DNA of 64,000 bases from Rhynchopus sp. YZ270_cl-10 (Eukaryota), in the NCBI GenBank assembly GCA_964035575.1, contig OZ037838.1:682001-746000 (forward strand). The letters run 5' to 3'. Shown here piece by piece: positions 15,949-53,365 of this stretch (position 1 is the first letter of the stretch; every line of letters starts with the position of its first letter). The notes below the pieces were generated by a model, which saw only the letters and a program-made list of their open reading frames with translations, had not been told where the DNA came from and made no database searches. Made by a program: the position numbers and the translations under genes.

Positions 15949-16493
15949 CCTTAACACTCTGTGTTAAGGTTTTTAAGGTTGCTTTTGCTACGCACCCTGT
16001 ACCTACACCCCCATACGGGGTCCATCAAAAATCGACATTTCACGCAGAGGCACCAAAGTGTAAGATTTTTTTGGCGTTGGAAAGATTGGGCCAAAAAAAT
16101 GAGGTATTTAGAATACAGTTTTCTGAGAGATTTGTTTTTAATTCCTATTTTCGTGTCGCGAGTTTACGTGGGAAACGCTTTAGAAACGTGCGTTCCTTAA
16201 GGCAAAACGGGCGTTTTTCACCGAAAAACACGAGTTTCAGCCCAAAACCCGGTTTTTTGGGCCCAGACCCGGGTATGTGGCGCCGGAAACGCACTTGCGG
16301 GGTACCGAAGGTGGGCTACGGTTTGTAACCACTCGTTGCGTTGCTTGGGTTCCGTTCGATGCATTCAGATCGGTTGCGTTGTGTTGGATGCGTTCGTTGC
16401 GTTCTGTTCGTGGGTGCCTGTTCGTTTCTGTTCAGATCTTTGCGTACATCAACCACCATCAAGAGGGAGTGTTAATGATCAGCAAAACTAAAT
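15949..16493 (+). mobile_element. Helitron2/Helentron-associated (HINE-like) non-autonomous element
   Basis: 5' hairpin ccttaacac-tct-gtgttaagg, subterminal inverted copy gagtgttaa near the 3' end, T|T insertion without TSD, and an internal cgttgcgtt repeat patch. Confidence 0.72.
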
Positions 16494-21776: not shown

Positions 21777-21932
21777 CAGAGAAACAGGGAGGGGCACTGG
21801 AAGTGTGATATGTGTAGCGAGGAAGAGGGGTACTATGGGAAAGAAAAAGCAAAAAGGCACACCAGAAAACGAATACTGGTGTGGCCGTCAACAGATGGTA
21901 AAAGAACGAGTAATTTGATTTCACAACAGTTT

Positions 21933-22135: not shown

Positions 22136-22480
22136 GCGTACCCCCCCCCGCAGTGTGGTATACACCCAATCTCCAAAAGCCTCCAAAGTGAAAGATATTT
22201 TCGGTGTCAGAATGATTCGGCGTAAAAACATGTAATAGAACATCAGATCTCTGACACATTAGTATATAATTGCTATTCTGGTGTCGCGAGTTTATGTGGG
22301 AGATACCTGAGAAAACGTGCGTGCCTGAAGGATTCGATTTGGCAAAATAGGCGTCATTCACCAAAAAACTGATACATTCTCCTTCTGGATTAGATTTATA
22401 GTCTCAAACCACTTCATGTAGGCTGTGAAATACATTATTTCAGTGTAAGAACCATGAGGAGGCCGTTTGTGCACAAAGAC
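22136..22480 (+). mobile_element. diverged HINE-like element body running directly into the satellite
   Basis: Collinear similarity to 44598-44945: ccaaagtg.aagat, tcagatc.ctga, gtgtcgcgagttta.gtg, cgtgcgt.cct.aaggattc, agaaccatg. Confidence 0.6.
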
Positions 22481-22540
22481 AACACAACAACCCCACTCAA
22501 CGCACCTCATTCTACTGCGAAAATTTCCTCTTTCCAACAC

Positions 22541-25500: not shown

Positions 25501-27559
25501 GCAAAAACCCACGCTTTCGAACGCAACGCGTTCTTCTGCGAAAACCCACGCTTTCGAAAGCAACGCGTTCTTCTGCGAAAACCCACGCTTTCGAACGCAA
25601 CGCGTTCATCTGCAAAAGCCCACGCTTTCGAACGCAACGCGTTCTTCTGCGAAAACCCACGCTTTCGAAAGCAACGCGTTCTTCTGCGAAAAGGCACGCT
25701 TTCGAACGCAACGCGTTCTTCTGCAAAACCCACGCTTTCGAAAGCAACGCGTTCTTCTGCGAAAACCCACTCTTGCGAACGCAACGCGTTCTTCTGCAAA
25801 AACCCACGCTTTCGAACGCAACGCGTTCTTCTGCGAAAACCCACGCTTTCGAAAGCAACGCGTTCTTCTGCGAAAACCCACGCTTTCGAACGCAACGCGT
25901 TCTTCTGCAAAACCCACGCTTTCGAAAGCAACGCGTTCTTCTGCAAAAACCCACGCTTTCGAACGCAACGCGTTCTTCTGCGAAAGCCCACGCTTTCGAA
26001 AGCAACGCGTTTTTCTGCGAAAACCCACGCTTTCGAACGCAACGCGTTCTTCTGCGAAAACCCACGCTTTCGAACGCAACGCGTTCTTCTGCAAAACCCA
26101 CGCTTTCGAAAGCAACGCGTTCTTCTACAAAAACCCACGCTTTCGAAAGCAACGCGTTCTTCTGCAAAACCCACGCTTTCGAAAGCAACGCGTTCTTCTG
26201 CGAAAACCCACGCTTTCGAACGCAACGCTTTCTTCTGCGAAAACCCACGCTTTCGAACGCAACGCTTTCTTCTGCGAAAACCCACGCTTTCGAACGCAAC
26301 GCGTTCTTCTGCAAAACCCACGCTTTCGAACGCAACGCGTTCTTTTGCAAAAGCCCACGCTTTCGAACGCAACGCGTTCTTCTGCGAAAACCCACGCTTT
26401 CGAACGCAACGCGTTCTTCTGCGAAAACCCACGCTTTCGAACGCAACGCGTTCTTCTGCAAAAGCCCACGCTTTCGAACGCAACGCGTTCTTCTGCAAAA
26501 GCCCACGCTTTCGAACGCAACGCGTTCTTCTGCAAAAGCCCACGCTTTCGAACGCAACGCGTTCTTCTGCGAAAACCCACGCTTTCGAACGCAACGCGTT
26601 CTTCTGCGAAAACCCACTCTTTCGAAAGCAACGCGTTCTTCTGCAAAACCCACGCTTTCGAAAGCAACGCGTTCTTCTGCGAAAACCCACTCTTGCGAAC
26701 GCAACGCGTTCTTCTGCAAAAACCCACGCTTTCGAACGCAACGCGTTCTTCTGCGAAAACCCACGCTTTCGAACGCAACGCGTTCTTCTGCGAAAACCCA
26801 CGCTTTCGAACGCAACGCGTTCTTCTGCAAAAGCCCACGCTTTCGAACGCAACGCGTTCTTCTGCAAAAGCCCACGCTTTCGAACGCAACGCGTTCTTCT
26901 GCAAAAGCCCACGCTTTCGAACGCAACGCGTTCTTCTGCGAAAACCCACGCTTTCGAACGCAACGCGTTCTTCTGCGAAAACCCACTCTTTCGAAAGCAA
27001 CGCGTTCTTCTGCGAAAACCCACGCTTTCGAACGCAACGCGTTCTTCTGCAAAAGCCCACGCTTTCGAACGCAACGCGTTCTTCTGCAAAAACCCACGCT
27101 TTCGAACGCAACGCGTTCTTCTGCAAAAACCCACGCTTTCGAAAGCAACGCGTTCTTCTGCGAAAACCCACGCTTTCGAACGCAACGCGTTCTTCTGCAA
27201 AAACCCACGCTTTCGAACGCAACGCGTTCTTCTGCAAAAACCCACGCTTTCGAAAGCAACGCGTTCTTCTGCGAAAACCCACGCTTTCGAACGCAACGCG
27301 TTCTTCTGCAAAAGCCCACGCTTTCGAACGCAACGCGTTCACCTGCAAAAGCCCACGCTTTCGAACGCAACGCGTTCTTCTGGGAAAACCCACGCTTTCG
27401 AACGCAACGCGTTCTTTTGCGAAAACCCACGCTTTCGAACGCAACGCGTTCTTCTGCGAAAACCCACGCTTTCGAACGCAACGCGTTCTTTTGCGAAAAC
27501 CCACGCTTTCGAACGCAACGCGTTCACCTGCAAAAGCCCACGCTTTCGAACGCAACGCG
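22541..27559 (+). repeat. 37-bp satellite, block 1 (consensus gcgttcttctgcaaaaacccacgctttcgaacgcaac)
   Basis: About 135 tandem 36-37-bp units with a degenerate left edge. Confidence 0.99.
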
Positions 27560-30500
27560 TTTTTTTTTTTTTTTTTTTTTTCTCTTTGGCCTTTAGTGGT
27601 CTTTTTATTGCGATAGGTTAGTACACAATGAACAAAAAGCAAGGTGGGCGCACCACTCAAACAAAATGAACAGAACACAAAAGGTGGGCACGGCCCAGGG
27701 TATCTCATTACACCTCCCCTGACGTTGGTCTCCTGCTTGCTTGAGAGGCCGGGGAATCACTTTGGAGTCAAACAACTCGTACGCGAGGATACCTCCCCTA
27801 AAACTGGAAAATACAAATGGAGTGGTGCGCGCAGTAATGTAAGCGGTGTCGTGGCGTGCTTAGCCAAAGGTATACGCTTAAAAGTCACTCAAAAAAAAAA
27901 AAAAAAAAAATAAAAGGGAATATGCATTGTGTAAGTATAACTAGTGTGTATTTATATGGGGCGGTGTGGAAAGTGAAACGTAAGGCAGCAAATAGGGTAC
28001 ACACAGCTCGCCCCCATCACACGCTTTCCCCCTTTCATATCCCAAGATAGCACCCAGGGCGCAATCGATTTTAACATCAACAAAATGCAGTGACTGGTGT
28101 GTTTGTGTGTCTTTAGGGGCGAGGGGGCGGGCAGAGTGAGAGGCAGGCATCTGTGGCAGTCGCAAACCCCCAGCAGGTGCCCTGATCTCTTAGGTAGGTT
28201 TGTGTTGTGGCGGCGTACACGATTTGCCCTTGTTGTGGTGTTGGTGGCGTTCTTTTGGGGCATGTGGCTCGTGTTATTACCTATGAGACTCGGACACCCA
28301 GCAGAGGCGCAACTTCCACTTCAGGTACCCATCGCTCTCCCCACCCCTCCTCCCCTTGTCGTCGCATTTGCCTGTGCCGCAATCGGGTGTGCTTAGGGTA
28401 CTACATCGGGCCACGGGCAGGGGCTGAGTCTGGGGGTTGTCGTGGCAGAAAAATAAGCTAGTGAGTAGGGCACGAGTAGTACGTTCCCACATTGCGTAAC
28501 GTATCTTACTTGCATATGGGGATAAGGGGGGTTAAATGGTAGTACAGGTGGCTCGCATCGGGGGTGTCGCTACGCACCCGTCTACTTTACAGTGACTGCT
28601 GCCGAAAATAAAAAGGTGGGAGGTTACAGGGGCGCGGTACCCACTGGCGCCTCCCCGCAAGGTGTTGATAGCGACAGGTTGTTTCAGTTTGCAATTGCGA
28701 AAAAAAAAAAAATATTTTAAAATAAAACATTTTTTTTTTTTAAAAATTAAAATTTGTGTTATTAAAGTTTTGTTTTGTTACAAATTGTAGAAGTGTGTGT
28801 CACTACCCGTGGGGGGGAAGTTTGGGGCTACTGCGGTTGACATAGTGTCCCATAAGAGTGTGCTGTTGTTTTCGCTAGTAGCGTACCTGGTGGAGCATGC
28901 AAGGTGGCCTAGTAGACTCCTACGCAGCTTCACCGGCACGTGTGTATTGTGTAAAGGGGGAAGGGTGAGGTGGGGGTATTAAATAGGGGAGTTGGGGAAT
29001 TTGGGATTTTGGTGGGCGGGAAGAACGTCCGTATGGTAAGACGCGCCGCACGCCTCTTTGGGCACATGTAGTGTTTGTGTGTGCATGTGCTTGCATGTTT
29101 AGTCATAAGGGGGGTTTTGATGGTTGTGTTGGTAGCTCGCATCGGGGGTGTCGCTACGCACCCTTTCACCTAACAGTAATTGCTGCCGTAAAAGAAAAAT
29201 AAATGATAAATGAAAAAGAGGAGGTTACCAGAGCGCGGTAGACACTGGCGCCTCCCCTCGAGGTGTTTGGTTGCGACAGAAAAGGTTACATTTTGCATTT
29301 TAAAAGTATCAAAAGAGGATAAGGTGTGAGCAGTTAAAGTAAAGGTGTGGGTCACTACCCTTTGAAGGGGAACAATGGGGTAACTGCAGCGCGGTAGTCG
29401 CTGGTGACCCTCAAGATTGTGTTGTTGTTTTGACAGGCAGCGTAATCGGTGGAAAATGCAAGGTGGCCGGGTAGACCCCTAAGCAGCTTCACCGGCACGT
29501 GCGTATTGTGTAAAGGGGGAAGGGTGTGTTGGCGGTATTAAATAGGGGGGAATTGGGGCACGGGAAGAGCATTCGTAGGGTAGATGTGTGGTACACCTCC
29601 GTCCGCACATGTATAGTTTACTTTAATTGATTAATGTACAGTCAGATGCTCCTAATCTACTTGTGTTTAACGACTGTTGACCTCCAAAAGAGCGGTAAAT
29701 ACATTGTGCTGTGGTACAGAGAGTGTAGGGAGTGGCGGCATAAAAAGGGGATAACTAGGTGCATAAAGAAGCGTCCGCTGGGTAAAATGTGGAGTACGCC
29801 TCTCTGGGCGTACTTCGAGTGCGGAGGGACCTGGGGCTTCAATAGCGAGAGAGAATTATGCATCAGGGATTTCTACGGTGTGAGAAGTGTGGTAGAGATG
29901 TGGAAAAATGGGTAGGGGGAACGCTGAATGAGCGAACGAAAGGCTTTTGATTGGGTAACATGTGGGGAAAGACAGCAGAAAAGCAACAAAATACCCGTTG
30001 TAAATAGGGGGACATGAATAACACGCTTGTTGTCAGGGGCTAGCAGCGCGACGTAAGTCGTACTGCAGCCTATGACACAAGATTAAACACAGAACATAAT
30101 AATATTAATCAACAACAACTCAGTCACGACTAACTACCGTTACGGAGGTACTCCTCAAGCGGGCCAGGCAGGAAACTCTCGCTGACGAGGTACTTCAGGG
30201 CGGTCGCCGGCTCTCGCATGAGGAGGGTATGGAGGTCCGGGAGGCTTTCGCTACACGTTTGTCGGCAGGAGAAGAACAGGTGCTTCAGGGTGCAGGGCTT
30301 GTCGCATCGCAGGCATGTGGCAGTGTTCGACGAGGTGCGGAAGTCGAACGTTAGCTGGTTGCTGCCAGCTCGGAGGCTGCGGATGGTGGTTTCCCCCCTG
30401 CGGGTGAGGTCCGTGCAGTGGACGGGAGGTTGCAGCACCGCTACGTCCGCTCCGGCCTTCCTGGCGTACACCGTGTTCGTGCCGGGCTGCTCGACGGAAG

Positions 30501-31362
30501 GGGTGTTCGCCAGGTGACGTCTCGCACATGATCTGGCGGCAGAGAAGGACAGGCCAGGGCTCTGCACCATCTTGGTGCCTTCTGCGGCCGCAGCGTCAGC
30601 AGCATCATTGCCCAGGACCTGCACATGCGAGGGGACGTAGTGCAGTATTAGGTTTATGTTGTTGCCGGCAAGCCGGTGTAGTCCTTTCCAGAGTTTGTGT
30701 TCGAAGTCCTCTCTGGCCTTCTTGGGACCGCTCTCTAGCGCACGCAGGGACGATTGCGAGTCTGTGAGGATGGCGCAGGTGGCCCCAGGGGTTGCTTTGT
30801 CAAAGAGAAGGTCAATGGAGTGGCCTATGGCGATCATTTCGGCTTGAAAGCTGCTTGCGCCGGTGCCGGCCCCGTAGGAGAAGGAGCAGTTGGGTTCTCG
30901 CATCTCGGGGAGCTTGTACAGCACTACCCCAGCACCCCCGCTTTTGCCCTGGACAGAGCCGTCGGTGTAGGCGTGCCATTCGCAGGGGGGAAGGCGTTGG
31001 AGGGCCTCCTCTGTGAGGAGCAGGAATTTTTCGTCATCTGGCTCAGGGTCGGAGCGGCGTATCCCAGGTATCGTGGCGGTGATACTTAGGCGGGGCAGTA
31101 CGTCACTCCAATACCACGGGTCTACAGGCAGGTGACGCTGCATATCTGCCATATGCACCCCAGGTCTGCGGAACTCCTTGTGTGCCTCGGAGGAGAGTCG
31201 CTGGGCGGCGGAGAGCCAGTTGTTGAGCGTGAGGGAGGCGGAGGTGTAGCCGCAGGCCGCTTTCCCTGGCGTGTCGGTGTGACGCCGAAACAACTCGAAC
31301 GCAGTTACGGCGTCCAATCGCATCAGGTCCACTATCGGGGTCAGGCGTGCCTCCCACAGCAA
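27560..31362 (-). mobile_element. 5'-truncated ingi/I-group-like non-LTR retrotransposon, long copy A (3.8 kb)
   Basis: Poly(A) tail (T22 on +), ~2.55-kb 3' UTR, and an RNase H + CCHC ORF end. The 5' junction is with satellite. Confidence 0.9.
30130..31362 (-). CDS. C-terminal ~410 aa of retrotransposon ORF: post-RT tether, RNase HI, C-x2-C-x7-H-x4-C knuckle (5'-truncated)
   Basis: Motifs YTDGS, SSFQAE, TDSQS, YVPSH, GNDAAD and CLRCDKPCTLKHLFFSC. The N-terminal part of the called ORF is translated satellite. Confidence 0.92.
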   Translation of the reverse strand: MLWEARLTPIVDLMRLDAVTAFELFRRHTDTPGKAACGYTSASLTLNNWLSAAQRLSSEAHKEFRRPGVHMADMQRHLPVDPWYWSDVLPRLSITATIPGIRRSDPEPDDEKFLLLTEEALQRLPPCEWHAYTDGSVQGKSGGAGVVLYKLPEMREPNCSFSYGAGTGASSFQAEMIAIGHSIDLLFDKATPGATCAILTDSQSSLRALESGPKKAREDFEHKLWKGLHRLAGNNINLILHYVPSHVQVLGNDAADAAAAEGTKMVQSPGLSFSAARSCARRHLANTPSVEQPGTNTVYARKAGADVAVLQPPVHCTDLTRRGETTIRSLRAGSNQLTFDFRTSSNTATCLRCDKPCTLKHLFFSCRQTCSESLPDLHTLLMREPATALKYLVSESFLPGPLEEYLRNGS

Positions 31363-33985
31363 GTTCTTCTGCAAAAACCCACGCTTTCGAACGCAACGCG
31401 TTCTTCTGCGAAAACCCACGCTTTCGAACGCAACGCGTTCTTCTGGGAAAACCCACGCTTTCGAACGCAACGCGTTCTTCTGGGAAAACCCACGCTTTCG
31501 AACGCAACGCGTTCTTCTGGGAAAACCCACGCTTTCGAACGCAACGCGTTCTTCTGCGAAAACCCACGCTTTCGAACGCAACGCGTTCTTCTGGGAAAAC
31601 CCACGCTTTCAAAAGCAACGCGTTCTTCTGCAAAAACCCACGCTTTCGAACGCAACGCGTTCTTCTGCGAAAACCCACGCTTTCGAAAGCAACGCGTTCT
31701 TCTGCAAAAACCCACGCTTTCGAACGCAACGCGTTCTTCTGCGAAAACCCACGCTTTCGAAAGCAACGCTTTCTTCTGCGAAAACCCACGCTTTCGAAAG
31801 CAACGCGTTCTTCTGCAAAAACCCACGCTTTCGAAAGCAACGCTTTCTTCTGCGAAAACCCACGCTTTCGAAAGCAACGCGTTCTTCTGCGAAAACCCAC
31901 GCTTTCGAACGCAACGCGTTCTTCTGCAAAAACCCACGCTTTCGAACGCAACGCGTTCTTCTGCGAAAACCCACGCTTTCGAAAGCAACGCTTTCTTCTG
32001 CGAAAACCCACGCTTTCGAAAGCAACGCGTTCTTCTGCAAAAACCCACGCTTTCGAACGCAACGCGTTCTTCTGCGAAAACCCACGCTTTCGAAAGCAAC
32101 GCTTTCTTCTGCGAAAACCCACGCTTTCGAAAGCAACGCGTTCTTCTGCAAAAACCCACGCTTTCGAACGCAACGCGTTCTTCTGCGAAAACCCACGCTT
32201 TCGAAAGCAACGCGTTCTTCTGCGAAAACCCACGCTTTCGAACGCAACGCGTTCTTCTGCAAAAACCCACGCTTTCGAACGCAACGCGTTCTTCTGCGAA
32301 AACCCACGCTTTCGAACGCAACGCGTTCTTCTGCAAAAGCCCACGATTTCGAACGCAACGCGTTCTTCTGCGAAAACCCACGCTTTCGAAAGCAACGCGT
32401 TCTTCTGCAAAAACCCACGCTTTCGAAAGCAACGCTTTCTTCTGCGAAAACCCACGCTTTCGAAAGCAACGCGTTCTTCTGCAAAAACCCACGCTTTCGA
32501 ACGCAACGCGTTCTTCTGCGAAAACCCACGCTTTCGAAAGCAACGCTTTCTTCTGCGAAAACCCACGCTTTCGAAAGCAACGCGTTCTTCTGCAAAAACC
32601 CACGCTTTCGAAAGCAACGCGATCTTCTGCAAAAACCCACGCTTTCGAACGCAACGCGTTCTTCTGCAAAACCCACGCTTTCGAAAGCAACGCGTTCTTC
32701 TGAAAAAACCCACGCTTTCGAACGCAACGCGTTCTTCTGCGAAAACCCACGCTTTCGAACGCAACGCGTTCTTCTGCAAAACCCACGCTTTCGAACGCAA
32801 CGCGTTCTTCTGCAAAACCCACGCTTTCGAAAGCAACGCGTTCTTCTGGGAAAACCCACGCTTTCGAACGCAACGCGTTCTTCTGCGAAAACCCACGCTT
32901 TCGAACGCAACGCGTTCTTCTGCAAAAGCCCACGCTTTCGAACGCAACGCGTTCTTCTGCAAAACCCACGCTTTCGAACGCAACGCGTTCATCTGCAAAA
33001 GCCCACGCTTTCGAACGCAACGCGTTCTTCTGCAAAAACCCACGCTTGCGTACGCAACGCGTTCTTCTGCGAAAACCCACGCTTTCGAAAGCAACGCGTT
33101 CTTCTGCGAAAACCCACGCTTTCGAAAGCAACGCGTTCTTCTGCAAAAACCCACGCTTTCGAACGCAACGCGTTCTTCTGCGAAAACCCACGCTTTCGAA
33201 AGCAACGCGTTCTTCTGCGAAAACCCACGCTTTCGAACGCAACGCGTTCTTCTGCAAAAACCCACGCTTTCGAACGCAACGCGTTCTTCTGCAAAAGCCC
33301 ACGCTTTCGAACGCAACGCGTTCTTCTGCAAAAGCCCACGCTTTCGAACGCAACGCGTTCATCTGCAAAAGCCCACGCTTTCGAACGCAACGCGTTCTTC
33401 TGCAAAAGCCCACGCTTTCGAACGCAACGCGTTCATCTGCAAAAGCCCACGCTTTCGAACGCAACGCGTTCTTCTGCAAAAACCCACGCTTTCGTACGCA
33501 ACGCGTTCTTCTGCGAAAACCCACGCTTTCGAAGGCAACGCGTTCTTCTGCGAAAACCCACGCTTTCGAACGCAACGCGTTCTTCTGCAAAAACCCACGC
33601 TTTCGAAAGCAACGCGTTCTTCTGCGAAAACCCACGCTTTCGAAGGCAACGCGTTCTTCTGCAAAAACCCACGCTTTCGAACGCAACGCGTTCTTCTGCA
33701 AAAACCCACGCTTTCGAACGCAACGCGTTCTTCTGCGAAAACCCACGCTTTCGAACGCAACGCGTTCTTCTGCAAAAACCCACGCTTTCGAACGCAACGC
33801 GTTCTTCTGCAAAAGCCCACGCTTTCGAACGCAACGCGTTCTTCCGCAAAACCCACGCTTTCGAACGCAACGCTTTCTTCTGCGAAAACCCACGCTTTCG
33901 AACGCAACGCTTTCTTCTGCGAAAACCCACGCTTTCGAACGCAACGCGTTCTTCTGCGAAAACCCACGCTTTCGAACGCAACGCG
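31363..33985 (+). repeat. 37-bp satellite, block 2
   Basis: Tandem units. Confidence 0.99.
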
Positions 33986-34406
33986 TTTTTTTTTTTTTTT
34001 TTTTTTTCTCTTTGGCCTTTAGTGGTCTTTTTATTGCGATAGGTTAGTACACAATGAACAAAAAGCAAGGTGGGCGCACCACTCAAACAAAATGAACAGA
34101 ACACAAAAGGTGGGCACTGCCCAGGGTATCTCATTACACCTCCCCTGACGTTGGTCTCCTGCTTGCTTGAGAGGCCGGGGAATCACTTTGGAGTCAAACA
34201 ACTCGTACGCGAGGATACCTCCCCTAAAACTGGAAAATACAAATGGAGTGGTGCGCGCAGTAATGTAAGCGGTGTCGTGGCGTGCTTAGCCAAAGGTATA
34301 CGCTTAAAAGTCACTCAAAAAAAAAAAAAAAAAAAATAAAAGGGAATATGCATTGTGTAAGTATAACTAGTGTGTATTTATATGGGGCGGTGTGGAAAGT
34401 GAAACG
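33986..34406 (-). mobile_element. retrotransposon 3' stub B (421 bp)
   Basis: T tract followed by ctctttggcctttagtgg..., ending at gaaacg. Confidence 0.9.
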
Positions 34407-35048
34407 TTTTTTTTTTTTTTTTTTTTTTTCTCTTTGGCCTTTAGTGGTCTTTTTATTGCGATAGGTTAGTACACAATGAACAAAAAGCAAGGTGGGCGCA
34501 CCACTCAAACAAAATGAACAGAACACAAAAGGTGGGCACTGCCCAGGGTATCTCATTACACCTCCCCTGACGTTGGTCTCCTGCTTGCTTGAGAGGCCGG
34601 GGAATCACTTTGGAGTCAAACAACTCGTACGCGAGGATACCTCCCCTAAAACTGGGAAATACAAATGGAGTGGTGCGCGCAGTAATGTAAGCGGTGTCGT
34701 GGCGTGCTTAGCCAAAGGTATACGCTTAAAAGTCACTCAAAAAAAAAAAAAAAAAAAAAAAAAATAAAAGGGAATATGCATTGTGTAAGTATAACTAGTG
34801 TGTATTTATATGGGGCGGTGTGGAAAGTGAAACGTAAGGCAGCAAATAGGGTACACACAGCTCGCCCCCATCACACGCTTTCCCCCTTTCATATCCCAAG
34901 ATAGCACCCAGGGCGCAATCGATTTTAACATCAACAAAATGCAGTGACTGGTGTGTTTGTGTGTCTTTAGGGGCGAGGGGGCGGGCAGAGTGAGAGGCAG
35001 GCATCTGTGGCAGTCGCAAACCCCCACCAGGAGCCCTGATCTCTTAGG
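34407..35048 (-). mobile_element. retrotransposon 3' stub C (~640 bp), head-to-tail with B
   Basis: T tract plus UTR, ending tctcttagg|gcgttcttctgc. Confidence 0.9.
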
Positions 35049-37262
35049 GCGTTCTTCTGCGAAAACCCACGCTTTCGAACGCAACGCGTTCTTCTGCGAA
35101 AACCCACGCTTTCAAAAGCAACGCGTTCTTCTGCAAAAACCCACGCTTTCGAACGCAACGCGTTCTTCTGCGAAAACCCACGCTTTCGAAAGCAACGCGT
35201 TCTTCTGGGAAAACCCACGCTTTCGAAAGCAACGCGTTCTTCTGCGAAAACCCACGCTTTCGAACGCAACGCGTTCTTCTGCAAAACCCACGCTTTCGAA
35301 AGCAACGCGTTCTTCTGCAAAAACCCACGCTTTCGAAAGCAACGCGATCTTCTGCAAAAACCCACGCTTTCGAACGCAACGCGTTCTTCTGCAAAACCCA
35401 CGCTTTCGAAAGCAACGCGTTCTTCTGCAAAAACCCACGCTTTCGAACGCAACGCGTTCTTCTGGGAAAACCCACGCTTTCGAACGCAACGCGTTCTTCT
35501 GGGAAAACCCACGCTTTCGAACGCAACGCGTTCTTCTGGGAAAACCCACGCTTTCGAACGCAACGCGTTCTTCTGCGAAAACCCACGCTTTCGAACGCAA
35601 CGCGTTCTTCTGCAAAAGCCCACGCTTTCGAACTCAACGCGTTCTTCTGCGAAAACCCACGCTTTCGAACTCAACGCGTTCTTCTGCAAAACCCACGCTT
35701 TCGAACGCAACGCGTTCTTCTGCGAAAACCCACGCTTTCGAACGCAACGCGTTCTTCTGCAAAACCCCCGCTTTCGAACGCAACGCGTTCTTCTGCAAAA
35801 CCCACGCTTTCGAAAGCAACGCGTTCTTCTGCAAAAACCCACGCTTTCGAAAGCAACGCGATCTTCTGCAAAAACCCACGCTTTCGAACGCAACGCGTTC
35901 TTCTGCGAAAACCCACGCTTTCGAAAGCAACGCGTTCTTCTGGGAAAACCCACGCTTTCGAACGCAACGCGTTCTTCTGCAAAAGCCCACGCTTTCGAAC
36001 GCAACGCGTTCTTCTGCAAAACCCACGCTTTCGAACGCAACGCGTTCATCTGCAAAAGCCCACGCTTTCGAACGCAACGCGTTCTTCTGCAAAAACCCAC
36101 GCTTTCGAACGCAACGCGTTCTTCTGCAAAAGCCCACGCTTTCGAACGCAACGCGTTCTTCTGCAAAACCCACGCTTTCGAACGCAACGCGTTCATCTGC
36201 AAAAGCCCACGCTTTCGAACGCAACGCGTTCTTCTGCAAAAACCCACGCTTGCGTACGCAACGCGTTCTTCTGCGAAAACCCACGCTTTCGAAAGCAACG
36301 CGTTCTTCTGCGAAAACCCACGCTTTCGAAAGCAACGCGTTCTTCTGCAAAAACCCACGCTTTCGAACGCAACGCGTTCTTCTGCGAAAACCCACGCTTT
36401 CGAAAGCAACGCGTTCTTCTGCGAAAACCCACGCTTTCGAACGCAACGCGTTCTTCTGCAAAAACCCACGCTTTCGAACGCAACGCGTTCATCTGCAAAA
36501 GCCCACGCTTTCGAACGCAACGCGTTCTTCTGCAAAAGCCCACGCTTTCGAACGCAACGCGTTCTTCTGCAAAAACCCACGCTTTCGTACGCAACGCGTT
36601 CTTCTGCGAAAACCCACGCTTTCGAAGGCAACGCGTTCTTCTGCGAAAACCCACGCTTTCGAACGCAACGCGTTCTTCTGCGAAAACCCACGCTTTCGAA
36701 CGCAACGCGTTCTTCTGCAAAAACCCACGCTTTCGAACGCAACGCGTTCTTCTGCAAAAACCCACGCTTTCGAACGCAACGCGTTCTTCTGCGAAAACCC
36801 ACGCTTTCGAACGCAACGCGTTCTTCTGCAAAAACCCACGCTTTCGAACGCAACGCGTTCTTCTGCAAAAGCCCACGCTTTCGAACGCAACGCGTTCTTC
36901 CGCAAAACCCGCGCTTTCGAACGCAACGCTTTCTTCTGCGAAAACCCACGCTTTCGAAAGCAACGCGTTCTTCTGCGAAAACCCACGCTTTCGAACGCAA
37001 CGCTTTCTTCTGCGAAAACCCACGCTTTCGAACGCAACGCGTTCTTCTGCAAAAGCCCACGCTTTCGAACGCAACGCGTTCTTCCGCAAAACCCACGCTT
37101 TCGAACGCAACGCTTTCTTCTGCGAAAACCCACGCTTTCGAAAGCAACGCGTTCTTCTGCGAAAACCCACGCTTTCGAAAGCAACGCGTTCTTCTGCGAA
37201 AACCCACGCTTTCGAACGCAACGCGTTCTTCTGCGAAAACCCACGCTTTCGAACGCAACGCG
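35049..37262 (+). repeat. 37-bp satellite, block 3
   Basis: Tandem units. Confidence 0.99.
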
Positions 37263-37897
37263 TTTTTTTTTTTTTTTTTTTTTTCTCTTTGGCCTTTAGT
37301 GGTCTTTTTATTGCGATAGGTTAGTACACAATGAACAAAAAGCAAGGTGGGCGCACCACTCAAACAAAATGAACAGAACACAAAAGGTGGGCACTGCCCA
37401 GGGTATCTCATTACACCTCCCCTGACGTTGGTCTCCTGCTTGCTTGAGAGGCCGGGGAATCACTTTGGAGTCAAACAACTCGTACGCGAGGATACCTCCC
37501 CTAAAACTGGAAAATACAAATGGAGTGGTGCGCGCAGTAATGTAAGCGGTGTCGTGGCGTGCTTAGCCAAAGGTATACGCTTAAAAGTCACTCAAAAAAA
37601 AAAAAAAAAAAAATAAAAGGGAATATGCATTGTGTAAGTATAACTAGTGTGTATTTATATGGGGCGGTGTGGAAAGTGAAACGTAAGGCAGCAAATAGGG
37701 TACACACAGCTCGCCCCCATCACACGCTTTCCCCCTTTCATATCCCAAGATAGCACCCAGGGCGCAATCGATTTTAACATCAACAAAATGCAGTGACTGG
37801 TGTGTTTGTGTGTCTTTAGGGGCGAGGGGGCGGGCAGAGTGAGAGGCAGGCATCTGTGGCAGTCGCAAACCCCCACCAGGAGCCCTGATCTCTTAGG
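37263..37897 (-). mobile_element. retrotransposon 3' stub D (635 bp)
   Basis: Same 5' junction as stub C. Confidence 0.9.
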
Positions 37898-38267
37898 GCG
37901 TTCTTCTGCGAAAACCCACGCTTTCGAACGCAACGCGTTCTTCTGCGAAAACCCACGCTTTCAAAAGCAACGCGTTCTTCTGCAAAAACCCACGCTTTCG
38001 AACGCAACGCGTTCTTCTGCGAAAACCCACGCTTTCGAAAGCAACGCGTTCTTCTGGGAAAACCCACGCTTTCGAAAGCAACGCGTTCTTCTGCGAAAAC
38101 CCACGCTTTCGAACGCAACGCGTTCTTCTGCGAAAACCCACGCTTTCGAACGCAACGCGTTCTTCTGCAAAACCCACGCTTTCGAAAGCAACGCGATCTT
38201 CTGCAAAAACCCACGCTTTCGAACGCAACGCGTTCTTCTGCAAAACCCACGCTTTCGAAAGCAACGC

Positions 38268-38271
<4 letters not shown>
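37898..38271 (+). repeat. 37-bp satellite, block 4
   Basis: About 10 tandem units. Confidence 0.99.
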
Positions 38272-38298
<27 letters not shown>

Positions 38299-38608
38299 TC
38301 TCTTTGGCCTTTAGTGGTCTTTTTATTGCGATAGGTTAGTACACAATGAACAAAAAGCAAGGTGGGCGCACCACTCAAACAAAATGAACAGAACACAAAA
38401 GGTGGGCACGGCCCAGGGTATCTCATTACACCTCCCCTGACGTTGGTCTCCTGCTTGCTTGAGAGGCCGGGGAATCACTTTGGAGTCAAACAACTCGTAC
38501 GCGAGGATACCTCCCCTAAAACTGGAAAATACAAATGGAGTGGTGCGCGCAGTAATGTAAGCGGTGTCGTGGCGTGCTTAGCCAAAGGTATACGCTTAAA
38601 AGTCACTC

Positions 38609-38639
<31 letters not shown>

Positions 38640-41600
38640 AATATGCATTGTGTAAGTATAACTAGTGTGTATTTATATGGGGCGGTGTGGAAAGTGAAAC
38701 GTAAGGCAGCAAATAGGGTACACACAGCTCGCCCCCATCACACGCTTTCCCCCTTTCATATCCCAAGATAGCACCCAGGGCGCAATCGATTTTAACATCA
38801 ACAAAATGCAGTGACTGGTGTGTTTGTGTGTCTTTAGGGGCGAGGGGGCGGGCAGAGTGAGAGGCAGGCATCTGTGGCAGTCGCAAACCCCCACCAGGAG
38901 CCCTGATCTCTTAGGTATGTTTGTGTTGTGGCGGCGTACACGATTTGCCCTTGTTGGGGTGTTGGTGGCGTTCTTTTGGGGCATGTGGCTCGTGTTATTA
39001 CCTATGAGACTCGGACACCCAGCAGAGGCGCAACTTCCACTTCAGGTACCCATCGCTCTCCCCACCCCTCCTCCCCTTGTCGTCGCATTTGCCTGTGCCG
39101 CAATCGGGTGTGCTTAGGGTACTACATCGGGCCACGGGCAGGGGCTGAGTCTGGGGGCTGTCGTGGCAGAAAAATAAGCTAGTGAGTAGGGCACGAGTAG
39201 TACGTTCCCACATTGCGTAACGTATCTTACTTGCATATGGGGATAAGGGGGGTTAAATGGTAGTACAGGTGGCTCGCATCGGGGGTGTCGCTACGCACCC
39301 GTCTACTTTACAGTGACTGCTGCCGAAAATAAAAAGGTGGGAGGTTACAGGGGCGCGGTACCCACTGGCGCCTCCCCGCAAGGTGTTGATAGCGACAGGT
39401 TGTTTCAGTTTGCAATTGCGAAAAAAAAAAAAAAAATATTTTAAAATAAAACATTTTTTATTTAAATTTAAAATTTGTGTTATTAAAGTTTTGTTTTGTT
39501 ACAAATTGTAGAAGTGTGTGTCACTACCCGTGGGGGGGAGTTTGGGGCTACTGCGGTTGACATAGTGTCCCATAAGAGTGTGCTGTTGTTTTCGCTAGTA
39601 GCGTACCTGGTGGAGCATGCAAGGTGGCCTAGTAGACTCCTACGCAGCTTCACCGGCACGTGTGTATTGTGTAAAGGGGGAAGGGTGAGGTGGGGGTATT
39701 AAATAGGGGAGTTGGGGAATTTGGGATTTTGGTGGGCGGGAAGAACGTCCGTATGGTAAGACGCGCCGCACGCCTCTTTGGGCACATGTAGTGTTTGTGT
39801 GTGCATGTGCTTGCATGTTTAGTCATAAGGGGGGTTTTGATGGTTGTGTTGGTAGCTCGCATCGGGGGTGTCGCTACGCACCCTTTCACCTAACAGTAAT
39901 TGCTGCCGTAAAAGAAAAATAAATGATAAATGAAAAAGAGGAGGTTACCAGAGCGCGGTAGACACTGGCGCCTCCCCTCGAGGTGTTTGGTTGCGACAGA
40001 AAAGGTTACATTTTGCATTTTAAAAGTTTCAAAAGAGGATAAGGTGTGAGCAGTTAAAGTAAAAGTGTGGGTCACTACCCTTTGAAGGGGAACAATGGGG
40101 TAACTGCAGCGCGGTAGTCGCTGGTGACCCTCAAGATTGTGTTGTTGTTTTGACAGGCAGCGTAATCGGTGGAAAATGCAAGGTGGCCGGGTAGACCCCT
40201 AAGCAGCTTCACCGGCACGTGCGTATTGTGTAAAGGGGGAAGGGTGTGTTGGCAGTATTAAATAGGGGGGAATTGGGGCACGGGAAGAGCATTCGTAGGG
40301 TAGATGTGTGGTACACCTCCGTCCGCACATGTATAGTTTGCTTTAATTGATTAATGTACAGTCAGATGCTCCTAATCTACTTGTGTTTAACGACTGTTGA
40401 CCTCCAAAAGAGCGGTAAATACATTGTGCTGTGGTACAGAGAGTGTAGGGAGTGGCGGCATAAAAAAGGGGATAACTAGGTGCATAAAGAAGCGTCCGCT
40501 GGGTAAAATGTGGAGTACGCCTCTCTGGGCGTACTTCGAGTGCGGAGGGACCTGGGGCTTCAATAGCGAGAGAGAATTATGCATCAGGGATTTCTACGGT
40601 GTGAGAAGTGTGGTAGAGATGTGGAAAAATGGGTAGGGGGAACGCTGAATGAGCGAACGAAAGGCTTTTGATTGGGTAACATGTGGGGAAAGACAGCAGA
40701 AAAGCAACAAAATACCCGTTGTAAATAGGGGGACATGAATAACACGCTTGTTGTCAGGGGCTAGCAGCGCGACGTAAGTCGTACTGCAGCCTATGACACA
40801 AGATTAAACACAGAACATAATAATATTAATCAACAACAACTCAGTCACGACTAACTACCGTTACGGAGGTACTCCTCAAGCGGGCCAGGCAGGAAACTCT
40901 CGCTGACGAGGTACTTCAGGGCGGTCGCCGGCTCTCGCATGAGGAGGGTATGGAGGTCCGGGAGGCTTTCGCTACACGTTTGTCGGCAGGAGAAGAACAG
41001 GTGCTTCAGGGTGCAGGGCTTGTCGCATCGCAGGCATGTGGCAGTGTTCGACGAGGTGCGGAAGTCGAACGTTAGCTGGTTGCTGCCAGCTCGGAGGCTG
41101 CGGATGGTGGTTTCCCCCCTGCGGGTGAGGTCCGTGCAGTGGACGGGAGGTTGCAGCACCGCTACGTCCGCTCCGGCCTTCCTGGCGTACACCGTGTTCG
41201 TGCCGGGCTGCTCGACGGAAGGGGTGTTCGCCAGGTGACGTCTCGCACATGATCTGGCGGCAGAGAAGGACAGGCCAGGGCTCTGCACCATCTTGGTGCC
41301 TTCTGCGGCCGCAGCGTCAGCAGCATCATTGCCCAGGACCTGCACATGCGAGGGGACGTAGTGCAGTATTAGGTTTATGTTGTTGCCGGCAAGCCGGTGT
41401 AGTCCTTTCCAGAGTTTGTGTTCGAAGTCCTCTCTGGCCTTCTTGGGACCGCTCTCTAGCGCACGCAGGGACGATTGCGAGTCTGTGAGGATGGCGCAGG
41501 TGGCCCCAGGGGTTGCTTTGTCAAAGAGAAGGTCAATGGAGTGGCCTATGGCGATCATTTCGGCTTGAAAGCTGCTTGCGCCGGTGCCGGCCCCGTAGGA

Positions 41601-42083
41601 GAAGGAGCAGTTGGGTTCTCGCATCTCGGGGAGCTTGTACAGCACTACCCCAGCACCCCCGCTTTTGCCCTGGACAGAGCCGTCGGTGTAGGCGTGCCAT
41701 TCGCAGGGGGGAAGGCGTTGGAGGGCCTCCTCTGTGAGGAGCAGGAATTTTTCGTCATCTGGCTCAGGGTCGGAGCGGCGTATCCCAGGTATCGTGGCGG
41801 TGATACTTAGGCGGGGCAGTACGTCACTCCAATACCACGGGTCTACAGGCAGGTGACGCTGCATATCTGCCATATGCACCCCAGGTCTGCGGAACTCCTT
41901 GTGTGCCTCGGAGGAGAGTCGCTGGGCGGCGGAGAGCCAGTTGTTGAGCGTGAGGGAGGCGGAGGTGTAGCCGCAGGCCGCTTTCCCTGGCGTGTCGGTG
42001 TGACGCCGAAACAACTCGAACGCAGTTACGGCGTCCAATCGCATCAGGTCCACTATCGGGGTCAGGCGTGCCTCCCACAGCAA
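38272..42083 (-). mobile_element. 5'-truncated non-LTR retrotransposon, long copy E
   Basis: Near-identical to copy A (offset 10721 in the ORF), with the same 5' junction. The poly(A) junction is shifted by 3 nt (gcgttc|ttt). Confidence 0.9.
40851..42083 (-). CDS. RNase H + CCHC C-terminal ORF fragment of copy E
   Basis: Translation identical to 30130-31362. Confidence 0.92.
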   Translation of the reverse strand: MLWEARLTPIVDLMRLDAVTAFELFRRHTDTPGKAACGYTSASLTLNNWLSAAQRLSSEAHKEFRRPGVHMADMQRHLPVDPWYWSDVLPRLSITATIPGIRRSDPEPDDEKFLLLTEEALQRLPPCEWHAYTDGSVQGKSGGAGVVLYKLPEMREPNCSFSYGAGTGASSFQAEMIAIGHSIDLLFDKATPGATCAILTDSQSSLRALESGPKKAREDFEHKLWKGLHRLAGNNINLILHYVPSHVQVLGNDAADAAAAEGTKMVQSPGLSFSAARSCARRHLANTPSVEQPGTNTVYARKAGADVAVLQPPVHCTDLTRRGETTIRSLRAGSNQLTFDFRTSSNTATCLRCDKPCTLKHLFFSCRQTCSESLPDLHTLLMREPATALKYLVSESFLPGPLEEYLRNGS

Positions 42084-43940
42084 GTTCTTCTGCAAAAACC
42101 CACGCTTTCGAACGCAACGCGTTCTTCTGCGAAAACCCACGCTTTCGAACGCAACGCGTTCTTCTGGGAAAACCCACGCTTTCGAACGCAACGCGTTCTT
42201 CTGGGAAAACCCACGCTTTCGAACGCAACGCGTTCTTCTGGGAAAACCCACGCTTTCGAACGCAACGCGTTCTTCTGCGAAAACCCACGCTTTCGAACGC
42301 AACGCGTTCTTCTGGGAAAACCCACGCTTTCAAAAGCAACGCGTTCTTCTGCAAAAACCCACGCTTTCGAACGCAACGCGTTCTTCTGCGAAAACCCACG
42401 CTTTCGAAAGCAACGCGTTCTTCTGCAAAAACCCACGCTTTCGAACGCAACGCGTTCTTCTGCGAAAACCCACGCTTTCGAAAGCAACGCTTTCTTCTGC
42501 GAAAACCCACGCTTTCGAAAGCAACGCGTTCTTCTGCAAAAACCCACGCTTTCGAAAGCAACGCTTTCTTCTGCGAAAACCCACGCTTTCGAAAGCAACG
42601 CGTTCTTCTGCGAAAACCCACGCTTTCGAACGCAACGCGTTCTTCTGCAAAAACCCACGCTTTCGAACGCAACGCGTTCTTCTGCGAAAACCCACGCTTT
42701 CGAAAGCAACGCTTTCTTCTGCGAAAACCCACGCTTTCGAAAGCAACGCGTTCTTCTGCAAAAACCCACGCTTTCGAACGCAACGCGTTCTTCTGCGAAA
42801 ACCCACGCTTTCGAAAGCAACGCTTTCTTCTGCGAAAACCCACGCTTTCGAAAGCAACGCGTTCTTCTGCAAAAACCCACGCTTTCGAACGCAACGCGTT
42901 CTTCTGCGAAAACCCACGCTTTCGAAAGCAACGCGTTCTTCTGCGAAAACCCACGCTTTCGAACGCAACGCGTTCTTCTGCAAAAACCCACGCTTTCGAA
43001 CGCAACGCGTTCTTCTGCGAAAACCCACGCTTTCGAACGCAACGCGTTCTTCTGCAAAAACCCACGCTTTCGAAAGCAACGCGTTCTTCTGCAAAAACCC
43101 ACGCTTTCGAAAGCAACGCGATCTTCTGCAAAAACCCACGCTTTCGAACGCAACGCGTTCTTCTGCAAAACCCACGCTTTCGAAAGCAACGCGTTCTTCT
43201 GAAAAAACCCACGCTTTCGAACGCAACGCGTTCTTCTGCGAAAACCCACGCTTTCGAACGCAACGCGTTCTTCTGCAAAACCCACGCTTTCGAACGCAAC
43301 GCGTTCTTCTGCAAAACCCACGCTTTCGAAAGCAACGCGTTCTTCTGGGAAAACCCACGCTTTCGAACGCAACGCGTTCTTCTGCGAAAACCCACGCTTT
43401 CGAACGCAACGCGTTCTTCTGCAAAAGCCCACGCTTTCGAACGCAACGCGTTCTTCTGCAAAACCCACGCTTTCGAACGCAACGCGTTCATCTGCAAAAG
43501 CCCACGCTTTCGAACGCAACGCGTTCTTCTGCAAAAACCCACGCTTGCGTACGCAACGCGTTCTTCTGCGAAAACCCACGCTTTCGAAAGCAACGCGTTC
43601 TTCTGCGAAAACCCACGCTTTCGAAAGCAACGCGTTCTTCTGCAAAAACCCACGCTTTCGAACGCAACGCGTTCTTCTGCGAAAACCCACGCTTTCGAAA
43701 GCAACGCGTTCTTCTGCGAAAACCCACGCTTTCGAACGCAACGCGTTCTTCTGCGAAAACCCACGCTTTCGAACGCAACGCGTTCTTCTGCAAAAGCCCA
43801 CGCTTTCGAACGCAACGCGTTCTTCTGGGAAAACCCACGCTTTCGAACGCAACGCGTTCTTCTGCAAAACCCACGCTTTCGAAAGCAACGCGTTCTTCTG
43901 CGAAAACCCACGCTTTCGAAAGCAACGCGTTCTTCTGCAA
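42084..43940 (+). repeat. 37-bp satellite, block 5
   Basis: Tandem units. The variant order at the start mirrors block 2. Confidence 0.99.
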
Positions 43941-46039
43941 ATGCAGAGAGTGATGCAAAGAAGCAGAAGAAGTCCACTGCAAAGAATGCTGCTGCGAACA
44001 GCCAGGGGAAAGAGGAGTCTGCGAGTGGGGTGAAGCGCAGCAGTGATGACGGCGCCGATGCCGAGTGGCCCGGACTCGATATCGCTATGGCTGTGAGCAA
44101 GCAGGAGTCCGCAGGCCCGGCGGCAGGGACGACACGTGCCAGTGGGTTGCCACATGGAATACAGGATACGGGGTTTCTGCACCAGGAAGAACTTCTGGTG
44201 CACAACATGTAGAGGGTTCTCCCCATTGCGCTGGACGATGTGGAAGATTCGACCTATGGATTCTCCTCTTTGCACATGGTGGGATACGAAACCTCCTTAG
44301 CAGTGTCGCCGCCAGGATTCCAGGCCAATGATGTGACGTCGCTCACCTCGCGCCCTATCGCAACTCGGGGAGACGGAGCATGTGCGTTGCATGCGTTGCT
44401 GGGGAGGCATTTGTTGCATGGCGAGATTGTGTGCCGAGGTCTGCCAGATGTGACGGAGTCACAGCTCAGGGACAGGCCTTGGCATCATGCCAGGGTATAT
44501 GCGTTGAGAGAGCTCGTCAAGCATAGTGGCTTGTTCTTGAGGTGTGCCCGACAGTTCCTTAACACTCTGTGTTAAGGTTTTTAAGGTTGCTTTTGTGGCG
44601 TACCCCCCCACCCCTTGGCACCCCCGACGGGGTACCCCAAAAAATGACATTTCTCGCAGAGGCGCCAAAGTGTAAGATTTTTTCGGCATTGGAAAGATAG
44701 GGCCAAAAATCGAGTTCTTACTAAATCAGATCGCTGAGAGATTAGTTTTTAATTCCTATTTTCGTGTCGCGAGTTTACGTGTAAAATGCCTTAGGAACCG
44801 TGCGTTCCTTAAGGATTCTTAAGGATTCTACAGGGAAAACAGGCGTTTTGGCCAAAAACACGGTTTTTAAGGCAGGTAACCGGGTTTGCGGCTTGGGAAA
44901 CGTGCCAACGCGGTGTGAGAACCATGCGTGGGGGTTTGTAACCACTCGTTGCGTTGGTTGCGTTGCGTTCGTTACGTAGCGTTCGTTGCATACAGAACGC
45001 TACGTACACATAGGTTACGTAGTGTTGCATGCGGTTGCATGCGTTGCGTTCGTTGTGTAGAGATCGTTACGTACAGAGCGCAACGTATGGAGCGGTTGCG
45101 TTGCGTTGGTTGTGTTCGGTTGGTTACGTTCGTTGCGTACAGATAGTGACGCACGCATCGGTTCCGTTGTGTTGGATGAGATGCGTTGGTTGTGTTCGGT
45201 TGGTTACGTTCGTTGCGTTCAGATCGTTGCGCACACATCGGTAGCGTTGTGTTGGTTGTGTCGTTGACACATGTTCGTGGGAATCTGTTCGTTTCTTTTC
45301 AGATCTTTGCATACATCAACCACGATCAATAGGGAGTGTTAAGGATTAGCAAAACTAAATTTTGCGGCTTGACTCCAAGCTCGATAAGCACTGTGCGGAC
45401 GCGAAGGCCGAGTTGACCAGACTCGAGTCGCTACGAGGTGCTCTCATTTTTGAGCACGTCAAGGCTAGGGATTTGTGTGCTGAAGATTCGCAGTTCTTAC
45501 TGGAAATGAGGACGCTGCATGAACTTCATCGCGAGATGAGTCACGCGGACTTCATGCCACACGTGAATCCGGATTTGTGCAATGAGGGTTACAAGACGTG
45601 TGACCACATTCGTGAACGTGTGCGCGACGTTGCTGTTGCTGATCTCTTCCCGCAGGATGAGGCTGTTCAGCGTCAGACAGATGTGATCACGCGCAAGCAG
45701 GAGGAGTTCTATTCCTCAAGAGGCGTACAGGAAGAAGTTCGTCAGTCGGGACTATTACCTGTCTGTGAAGAAATCGAGGCAGTGGCAGTGGCGTTCGGCA
45801 AAAGGGTGCTATTGGTCCACGAGGACACCAATACTTGTGTTGTGATGAATCCGGAAGCGACCCATGTTCGCGTCATCCTGCAACAAGGGGATACAGCAGC
45901 ACCTGAGAAGTGCCATTTCTCCCTGCTGAAACAAAACTCGCGCACGCCACCAAATTTCCAGTGTCCGCAGTGTCGCACCACTTATTTTTTTCGCATTTTG
46001 AGGGGGGGGAAATGCAAAATGAAAACAAAATTTTGGTAG
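43941..46039 (+). pseudogene. UIM + OTU-like cysteine protease (deubiquitinase) pseudogene
   Basis: LDIAMAVSKQE (UIM-like), ATRGDGACALHALLG (OTU Cys loop) and EIEAVAVAFGKRVLLVH...CHFSLL (His loop), all in one frame. There is an in-frame TAG at 44210 and an 804-bp insertion. Confidence 0.7.
44557..45360 (+). mobile_element. Helitron2/HINE-like element inserted in the OTU pseudogene
   Basis: 5' hairpin ccttaacac/gtgttaagg and 3' subterminal gagtgttaagg (45334-45344). Excision at T|T restores RQF-LRLDSK with no TSD. Confidence 0.8.
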
Positions 46040-47197: not shown

Positions 47198-47564
47198 GAG
47201 TGGCGCTTTCACGGTCTGCTTCTGTCTTTGCTGTGGAGGGACGTGGCAACGTGCACCTCTTTGATTGGAGTGGTGCGGCTCTTGGCACTATTGATGTGGG
47301 TGGGGATGTCGGGGCATGCAGTTCACCCTGTGTGGGAAGTATGTTGTAGTCTGGGTAGAGGGTACGGATTCTGATGATGACACAGAGGACGACTGCAACA
47401 ATACACCCCTGAACCAGTATGATGTGGCGACCATGTCCTGTGTGCGTGTGATACCACAGTGTTCTGGTGCATTTGCGATATCGCCGTGTTCACGTGTTGT
47501 TGTGGTTGTGCAACCAGATGGCGTTATTGTGACAAAGCATCTGTACCCACACAACAGTGAGTGA
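47198..47564 (+). pseudogene. 3' fragment of a Ubl-propeller paralog with a frameshift
   Basis: VALSRSASVFAV...LYPHNSE*, with a frame change just before MQFT. Confidence 0.85.
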
Positions 47565-47719
47565 TGTGTGACCAGGGGAGGGGACCCAAGACCCTGAAAA
47601 CACCCCCAAGAAACCCCCCTTTTAGCCCTGTTGCAGGAACACGTATTATCTCTTCTTATTTGTCGTTGCGAAGTGACACCACCAACCATCACATCAAACA
47701 CAACAGACCCCTTAACAAT

Positions 47720-48829: not shown

Positions 48830-49030
48830 CGTGAGACCTCGGGAGGGGAGGGGAGGGAGGGTGGTGATGAATATAACCCAAGGTACGACAAAAAAATCCC
48901 AAGACCCTCAAACCACCCCCAATAAACACCCCCTTTTTGCCCTGTTGCAGAAACACGTACTCAACCTTCTTATTTGTTGCGAAGTGACATCACAAACCAT
49001 CACATCAAACACAACAGACCCCTTAACAAT

Positions 49031-53100: not shown

Positions 53101-53365
53101 ACTTCGTTATGTCATTGGGGGTACCTGGGTACCTGGGTACCTGGGTACCTGGGTACCTGGGTACCTGGGTACCTGGGTACCTGGGTACCTGGGTACCTGG
53201 GTACCTGGGTACCTGGGTACCTGGGTACCTGGGTACCTGGGTACCTGGTGCCTGTATTTTGACAGGTGGTACCTGTCAAAATGACAGGTACCACCTGTCA
53301 AAAATTTTCACCTGTCATTTTACTAGTAAAATCACCTGTCATGGTCATAACTAGTCCGTCGTGTG
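50182..53365. mobile_element. 3.2-kb CAC...GTG TIR element with subterminal TGACAGGTG repeats
   Basis: ~35-bp TIR cacacgacggactagttatggccatgacaggtgat / atcacctgtcatggtcataactagtccgtcgtgtg. Flanks are gtgac / gtgat. It sits in the spacer of the Ubl-propeller array. Confidence 0.8.
53119..53249 (+). repeat. (GGGTACCT)n 8-bp microsatellite
   Basis: About 16 perfect units inside the TIR element. Confidence 0.95.

Follow-up and report, generated by a model that had tools for sequence, protein, structure and literature searches.

A 64,000-nt stretch of contig OZ037838.1 (positions 682,001 to 746,000, forward strand; hereafter the window, with coordinates counted from its first letter) carries an array of a 37-bp satellite that extends from 22530 to 43938 in five segments totalling 332 monomer units. 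Five pieces of a single poly(A) long interspersed nuclear element (LINE), all on the minus strand, break the array up. The structure of these pieces, their junctions, their duplications and their domains are directly observed. On balance, the element is probably a dispersed Ingi-like LINE of the apurinic/apyrimidinic endonuclease (APE) type that prefers a short motif, TT/CT, and for which the satellite forms a local hot spot that unequal crossover has enlarged; we infer that most of its copies are dispersed. An earlier prediction made from the same DNA had proposed a satellite-specific element primed from the TT or TTCTT of the monomer. Priming at the TT of TTCTT agrees with the junctions described here, while specificity for the satellite is neither shown nor refuted; the probabilities obtained within the window are weak.

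Junctions between the element and the satellite

The array and the element pieces are arranged as follows.

22530–27559, plus strand: satellite segment S1, 137 units of the monomer, with a degenerate left edge
27560–31362, minus strand: copy 1, T22 followed by 3,781 bp of 5'-truncated LINE
27582–30129, minus strand: 3' untranslated region (UTR) of copy 1, 2.55 kb, containing a diverged duplication, its AATAAA lying 22 nt ahead of the poly(A)
30130–31362, minus strand: 3' end of the pol open reading frame (ORF) of copy 1, 410 aa, RNase H at residues 131–263, knuckle at 350–366
31363–33985, plus strand: satellite segment S2, 72 units, its initial 976 bp equal to S5
33986–34406, minus strand: copy 2, T22 and 0.40 kb, head-to-tail with copy 3
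34407–35048, minus strand: copy 3, T23 and 0.62 kb, its poly(A) abutting copy 2 between GAAACG and T (element, not satellite)
35049–37262, plus strand: satellite segment S3, 61 units, its initial 234 bp equal to S4
37263–37897, minus strand: copy 4, T22 and 0.61 kb, target duplication GCG(TT)
37898–38271, plus strand: satellite segment S4, 11 units
38272–42083, minus strand: copy 5, T28 and 3,784 bp, target duplication GTTC(TT), ORF at 40851–42083
42084–43938, plus strand: satellite segment S5, 51 units, stopping abruptly within an unrelated reading frame

The poly(A) ends appear as T-runs starting at 27560 (T22), 33986 (T22), 34407 (T23), 37263 (T22) and 38272 (T28), the bodies of copies 1 to 5 end at 31362, 34406/7, 35048, 37897 and 42083, and the pieces share 98.4–99.8% identity with copy 1. 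The satellite letters preceding the T-runs are GCAACGCG at 27560, 33986 and 37263 and GCAACGCGTTC at 38272, and poly(A) and satellite meet at GCGTT/CTT at four ends; at 34407 the letters before the T-run are the element's own GAAACG. The satellite restarts with GTTCTT after the long copies (31363 and 42084) and with GCGTTC after the short ones (35049 and 37898), so that two distinct satellite-side 5' junctions are found among the five pieces. The coordinates and junction letters of the original prediction all matched on rechecking, as did its placement of four satellite/poly(A) junctions at one site (4/4 in register) and the in-register restart of the satellite (both distinct 5' junctions). 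Its five pieces on one strand also stand, but two of the ends that it counted, the third 5' end (0.42 kb) and the fifth poly(A) end, are the two sides of an element–element junction at 34406/34407 and do not touch the satellite.

When the TT common to target and tail is counted as target, the target duplications measure 5–6 bp, GCGTT for the short insertion and GTTCTT for the long one (at the copy 5 end); their length is ambiguous by this shared TT and is defined modulo 37 only. The putative first-strand nick positions of the short and long insertions both read TT/CT on the plus strand. The poly(A) 3' end and variable 5' truncation, recognised in the prediction as a signature of target-primed reverse transcription (TPRT), are present together with a short target duplication, and the element is a retrotransposon lacking long terminal repeats (a non-LTR element) with TPRT-type insertion. 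The remaining 42,591 bp of the window contain no element sequence apart from A/T runs, again as predicted.

A mechanism can be proposed in which the APE would nick the plus strand after the TT in GCGTT/CTT/CTGC, at a putative nick position, after which the TT-3'OH would pair with the poly(A) and prime reverse transcription. A second nick would fall 5–6 bp away, early arrest of synthesis would give the 0.6- and 3.8-kb products, and unequal crossover in the array would then duplicate them; the presumed preferred motif, TT/CT, would be available in every monomer. An APE nick exposing the 3'OH that primes reverse transcription is established for APE LINEs, and the general mechanism is given in PMC13708176.

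The folding of the element's final 299 nt is ordinary (z −0.31), and no Rfam match was found in the UTR at E≤1. The diverged tandem duplication in the UTR (28522–28997 and 29105–29558, minus strand) has 67% identity with conserved blocks; one of its units folds at z −2.65, with double-sided changes at 5 of 70 consensus pairs in the two-sequence alignment, and the unit is possibly a structured RNA module.

The edges of the array were also seen in contigs from public runs (labelled X1 to X5). Runs X3 and X4 also have a loose end at the left boundary (22512–22541), an edge that is thus common to the samples, and it is adjoined by a diverged relative of a TTAA-ended dispersed repeat. Fused to the right end is a plus-strand frame with a GDGAC...HF pattern (43939–44572 and 45359–46036), split by the TTAA repeat, which resembles an OTU protease but has no Pfam match; in runs X2, X3 and X4 this frame is preceded by other sequence and not by satellite. 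The dispersed repeat itself lies at 44559–45342 and 15951–16475, with partial copies at 22170–22369 and 2616–2877; it is bounded by TTAACACTC...GAGTGTTAA and has CGTTG-rich internal repeats, and its TTAA ends suggest a non-autonomous piggyBac-like element.

Coding region and affiliation of the element

The long copies retain the final 410 codons of a pol reading frame. This piece contains an RNase H domain (PF00075, E 8.4e-9) with the acidic motifs YTDGS, FQAE, LTDS and GNDAAD, and one C-x2-C-x7-H-x4-C (CCHC) knuckle, followed 44 aa downstream by the stop codon, which leaves no room in the ORF for a restriction-like endonuclease (RLE). In 4/4 runs (X1, X2, X4 and X5, from four studies) contigs continue in element sequence past 31362, in X1 for up to 2.5 kb further and translating to the upstream ORF, and the 3.8-kb copies are therefore truly 5'-truncated. 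The upstream continuation in public contigs corresponds by alignment to relatives to the thumb region of the reverse transcriptase (RT), and the ORF is extended upstream in P0134, P0147 and P0284; none of the candidates scored is a full-length protein of the window element.

The best long relative, P0002, is 36% identical over 99% of the query and carries Exo_endo_phos_2, RVT_1 and RNase_H domains, and its Atlas neighbours have the same APE, RT and RNase H domains. Among 15 scanned relatives, nine have an APE family and 13 have RVT_1, and no RLE-type family was listed for them. A transcript of Rhynchopus euleeides encodes a relative of 1,323 aa. A 2A-like motif is present in 8 of 36 relatives longer than 900 aa and absent from the closest ones; 2A is also reported from CR1, L2, Rex1 and Crack (PMC3708506). 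In Ingi elements a 2A-like peptide precedes the APE within a single ORF, and trypanosomatid members carry a Pr77 promoter and HDV-like ribozyme at the 5' end; in the window the truncated copies lack this end together with the N-terminal region where an APE domain would lie. No solved structure matched the ORF piece, and a long relative matched only the RT domains of L1 ORF2p and R2. By domain architecture rather than an RT tree, the element is likely an Ingi-like APE LINE, in keeping with the ingi/I-like affinity predicted from its RNase H and C-terminal knuckle; its APE type is putative, being drawn from its relatives and the missing RLE. The predicted euglenozoan host also fits: the window RPS18 is 95% identical to R. 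euleeides and 89% to Lacrimia lanifica, and by this identity the host is a classical diplonemid near Rhynchopus.

The trypanosomatid Ingi elements (Tbingi and L1Tc) share with the window element a euglenozoan host, a poly(A) tail and a short target duplication, and L1Tc is said, in the title of a reference, to show "relative site specificity". The combination of APE, RT and RNase H found in relatives of the window element is described for autonomous INGI (PMC12278014), and a hot spot in multicopy sequence is likewise known from ingi, in the RHS multigene family (PMC7563717). Unlike the window element, with its single CCHC knuckle and 5–6-bp duplication, L1Tc has two C-terminal C2H2 fingers and a 9-bp duplication (PMC5814959), and the 2.55-kb 3' UTR with its internal duplication is a further difference from Ingi. 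The TRAS/SART (R1) and Tx1 elements are also of APE type and occupy tandem repeats in fixed phase and orientation (PMC4700185, PMC4640811), TRAS/SART serving as the model for such phase-fixed insertion (PMC4700185), but their specificity is demonstrated genome-wide and biochemically where the present case offers 2–3 events, and their targets are telomeric or microsatellite repeats rather than a 37-bp array. CRE, SLACS and CZAR are euglenozoan non-LTR elements found at one site of a tandem repeat, but they are of RLE type and target spliced leader (SL) RNA genes (PMC12278014), in contrast to the window ORF with its RNase H and its stop soon after the knuckle. These and other RLE clades were excluded as affiliations of the element, as the ORF has no room for an RLE and no Rfam match was found in the window; an origin of the array or UTR from SL RNA or another known RNA is therefore without support. 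YURE, a relative of NeSL/Utopia, occasionally inserts with weak specificity in the satellite family U2_sat; it differs in being RLE-type, and U2_sat is derived from U2 snRNA genes (PMC4640811).

Number of insertions and probable preference for the site

Judged by shared junctions and flanks, the five pieces go back to two, at most three, independent insertions, in agreement with the caveat of 2–3 attached to the original prediction. Copies 1 and 5 are exactly identical over 2,597 bp spanning their common 5' junction and including 976 bp of satellite, at an offset of 10,721 bp. Copies 3 and 4 share 538 bp of exact identity with 234 bp of satellite and a common 5' junction, and copies 2 and 4 share 496 bp with 75 bp of satellite and a common 3' flank; the offsets among these shorter products are about 2.85 and 3.28 kb. 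Copies 2 and 3 together equal copy 4 plus a 422-bp head-to-tail repeat, which may have come from a duplication or from a template jump that later collapsed.

Three 3' haplotypes can be distinguished (copy 1, copy 5 and copies 2–4). Copies 2–4 have T at 27692 against G in the long copies, and since this variant is present in runs X4 and X5 too, the short copies came from a different source element than the long ones. Copies 1 and 5 differ at nine positions of the 3' 2,181 bp but at no position of the 2,597 bp that follow (P 0.0009 for an even spread of substitutions), and their 3' junctions and left flanks differ; either a crossover joined two separate insertions, or a single old duplication has lately been homogenised. 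At 28457 and 28757 both copies carry letters that differ from all four runs, which fits an old homogenised duplication or a common subfamily. That all five pieces descend from one insertion, reshaped in the array by deletion and duplication, is very improbable: the shared GCG and T22 of copies 1, 2 and 4, the presence of just two 5' junctions and the frequent recombination of arrays would suit it, but it would have to account for a source variant, T27692, that occurs in other samples and is absent from copies 1 and 5, and for the short copy's own coherent target duplication, GCG(TT), which a deletion could produce only in exact register.

The chance that independent events share strand and phase is P 0.149 for two events and 0.017 for three when all 74 positions are open to insertion, and 0.26–0.28 and 0.07–0.08 if nicks follow TT, while the chance that all events fall in the array under a uniform null is 0.049 for two and 0.011 for three; these values are optimistic, since the window was selected because it shows the pattern. 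The common phase of so small a number of events is weak evidence (P 0.02–0.3 depending on the null). Of the window's TTCT sites 55% lie in the array, as do 75% of its GTTCT sites and 93% of its CGTTCT sites, all of them on the plus strand. A preference for 5–6 bases would be enough to place 75–93% of the window's sites in the array, and a modest preference explains both the common phase and the confinement to the array.

Outside the window, a single contig among four public runs joins the satellite to a T-run; in X2 it reaches T23 at the copy 5 phase (placed at 43934), and none of the window junctions matches it in every letter. This junction lies beside a 36-bp monomer, as in copy 5, with two mismatches and one gap relative to the reference (one and one in copy 5), and it may therefore be the same old insertion as copy 5; what follows the T-run is not part of the contig. 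Contigs indicate presence only, and not absence, and their depth gives no copy number; the poly(T) junction was, in addition, masked in the read analysis. No satellite–poly(T) loose ends were found among the contigs listed in X3, X4 and X5, and no element 5' end joined to satellite was listed in the four runs, where junction contigs may hold just 30 nt of satellite; neither blank is counted as evidence. Run X1 covers the element and not the satellite part, and is likewise not counted. As hints only, the X2 junction contig has a depth of 53 where that of the element 3' end is 3,716, the rough number of monomers per 3' end is 8–23 in X2 and 9–27 in X5 against 66 in the window (neither figure being counted as evidence), and element depth climbs toward the 3' end from 1,394 to 3,716 in X2 and from 2 to 5.25 in X5. 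Blanks and depth ratios alike lean against targeting. Loose ends that overlap by 4 bp flank 30530–30533 in run X4 and suggest that a further element is nested inside a LINE copy. The element 3' end, its protein and the monomer had no match in viral contigs, JGI metagenomes or prokaryote genomes.

Blocks 100% identical to the window ORF are present on four other contigs (6,564, 1,020,051, 1,619,506 and 2,712,987 bp), where their neighbours are non-satellite. These blocks speak against targeting; with them, and with no more than one satellite–poly(T) contig seen, the predicted satellite specificity is not shown. Where proteins of the family run into foreign sequence, 0 of 4 testable ends read as satellite or as element frameshift; set aside before this count were the tail of P0283 (its own UTR, with an internal deletion), the tails of P0133 and P0134 (frameshifts) and the N-terminus of P0147. 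Five unrelated ORFs, P0284 and P0302–P0305, which include Helitron_like_N and DUF6570 proteins, share an identical foreign C-terminal tail with the same starting point. Its recurrence marks it as the terminal part of another mobile element that is active in the window's genome or a sibling genome; the P0284 tail was accordingly rejected as an insertion flank, since four further, unrelated proteins have it, including two of Helitron type.

Several observations weigh against a dispersed element with a short motif preference. The 2–3 independent insertions and the X2 junction fall in the same 6-bp stretch in the same orientation, the longer T-run on the other strand of the monomer is unused, and no poly(A) end of the element was seen beside non-satellite genomic DNA. 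Of the foreign protein ends, the C-terminus of P0284 is the end of the mobile element nested in that copy, and a further two belong to the 3' side. The N-terminus of P0282 alone is where target DNA is expected, and this too may be a nested insertion; satellite may lie further out from these proteins.

An element dedicated to the satellite, whose APE recognises an extended sequence around AACGCGTTCTT, in the way that TRAS/SART recognise telomeric repeats, and whose copies elsewhere are debris, appears doubtful. The register of all four satellite-side poly(A) junctions and both distinct 5' junctions would be expected of it, as would the empty 42.6 kb outside the array (at the uniform-null probabilities given above) and the same-phase satellite–T23 junction in the independent run X2, and stray truncated TRAS copies off target are on record (PMC4700185). 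Against this, the events number only 2–3 in a window chosen for its pattern, the nick positions of the two insertions lie 3 bp apart, the X2 junction may repeat the copy 5 insertion, the identical ORF pieces found on four further contigs have neighbours other than satellite, and reports of target-specific APE elements come mainly from the Tx1 and R1 clades (PMC4640811). Nor is it probable that the element has no real preference, and that two insertions able to use any TT fell at neighbouring positions by chance and then multiplied. For two events the chance of the same strand within 5 bp is indeed 0.26–0.28 if nicks follow TT, that of both lying in the array is 0.08, and selection against insertions in genes favours repeats, but a possible third event (copy 1 versus copy 5, from the uneven substitutions) and a possible fourth (X2) at the same site, and the TT/CT at both nicks, speak for a preference. 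A dispersed LINE with a short motif preference and a satellite hot spot is thus retained as the probable explanation.

Neighbouring features and significance

Elsewhere in the window, three plus-strand paralogues (47561–48826, 48926–50170 and 54121–55326) share 79–82% DNA identity, with an N-terminus that is ubiquitin-like by eye and weak beta-propeller matches. A single-exon minus-strand ORF (10831–11859) encodes a P-loop kinase domain of the Zeta_toxin family (E 9.9e-11), here in a eukaryote. Perfect 8-bp minisatellites are present at 53119–53248 (GGGTACCT, 16 units) and 63268–63412 (CTCCACAC, 18 units), and a 21-bp repeat at 50277–50391 is related to sequence adjoining the first of them. 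Two tandem RPS18 genes (58821–59312 and 59759–60250) are 98.8% identical, and a MORN-repeat gene lies at 19635–21887.

The transposons of diplonemids are barely catalogued, and PMC10161547 defers their rigorous identification. The terms "ingi", "non-LTR" and "satellite" are absent from seven text supplements of that paper, among which its PDF on repeats was perhaps not included, and no satellite-targeting diplonemid LINE was found in the literature, in a search that lay outside most subscription journals and Repbase. The Ingi-like family in the window is young and recently active, and its defined junctions make it a useful entry in a poor catalogue. The hot spot echoes the ingi/RHS pattern and is of modest significance. 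A diplonemid Ingi-like LINE with APE and RNase H that strictly recognises a lineage-specific 37-bp satellite is an unlikely case, but if it were true, target specificity would have arisen in an APE lineage other than R1 and Tx1, its object a young repeat instead of a conserved RNA gene. Such an independent origin on a fast-evolving target would bear on how LINE endonucleases gain specificity, and would be relevant to tools for site-directed gene insertion.

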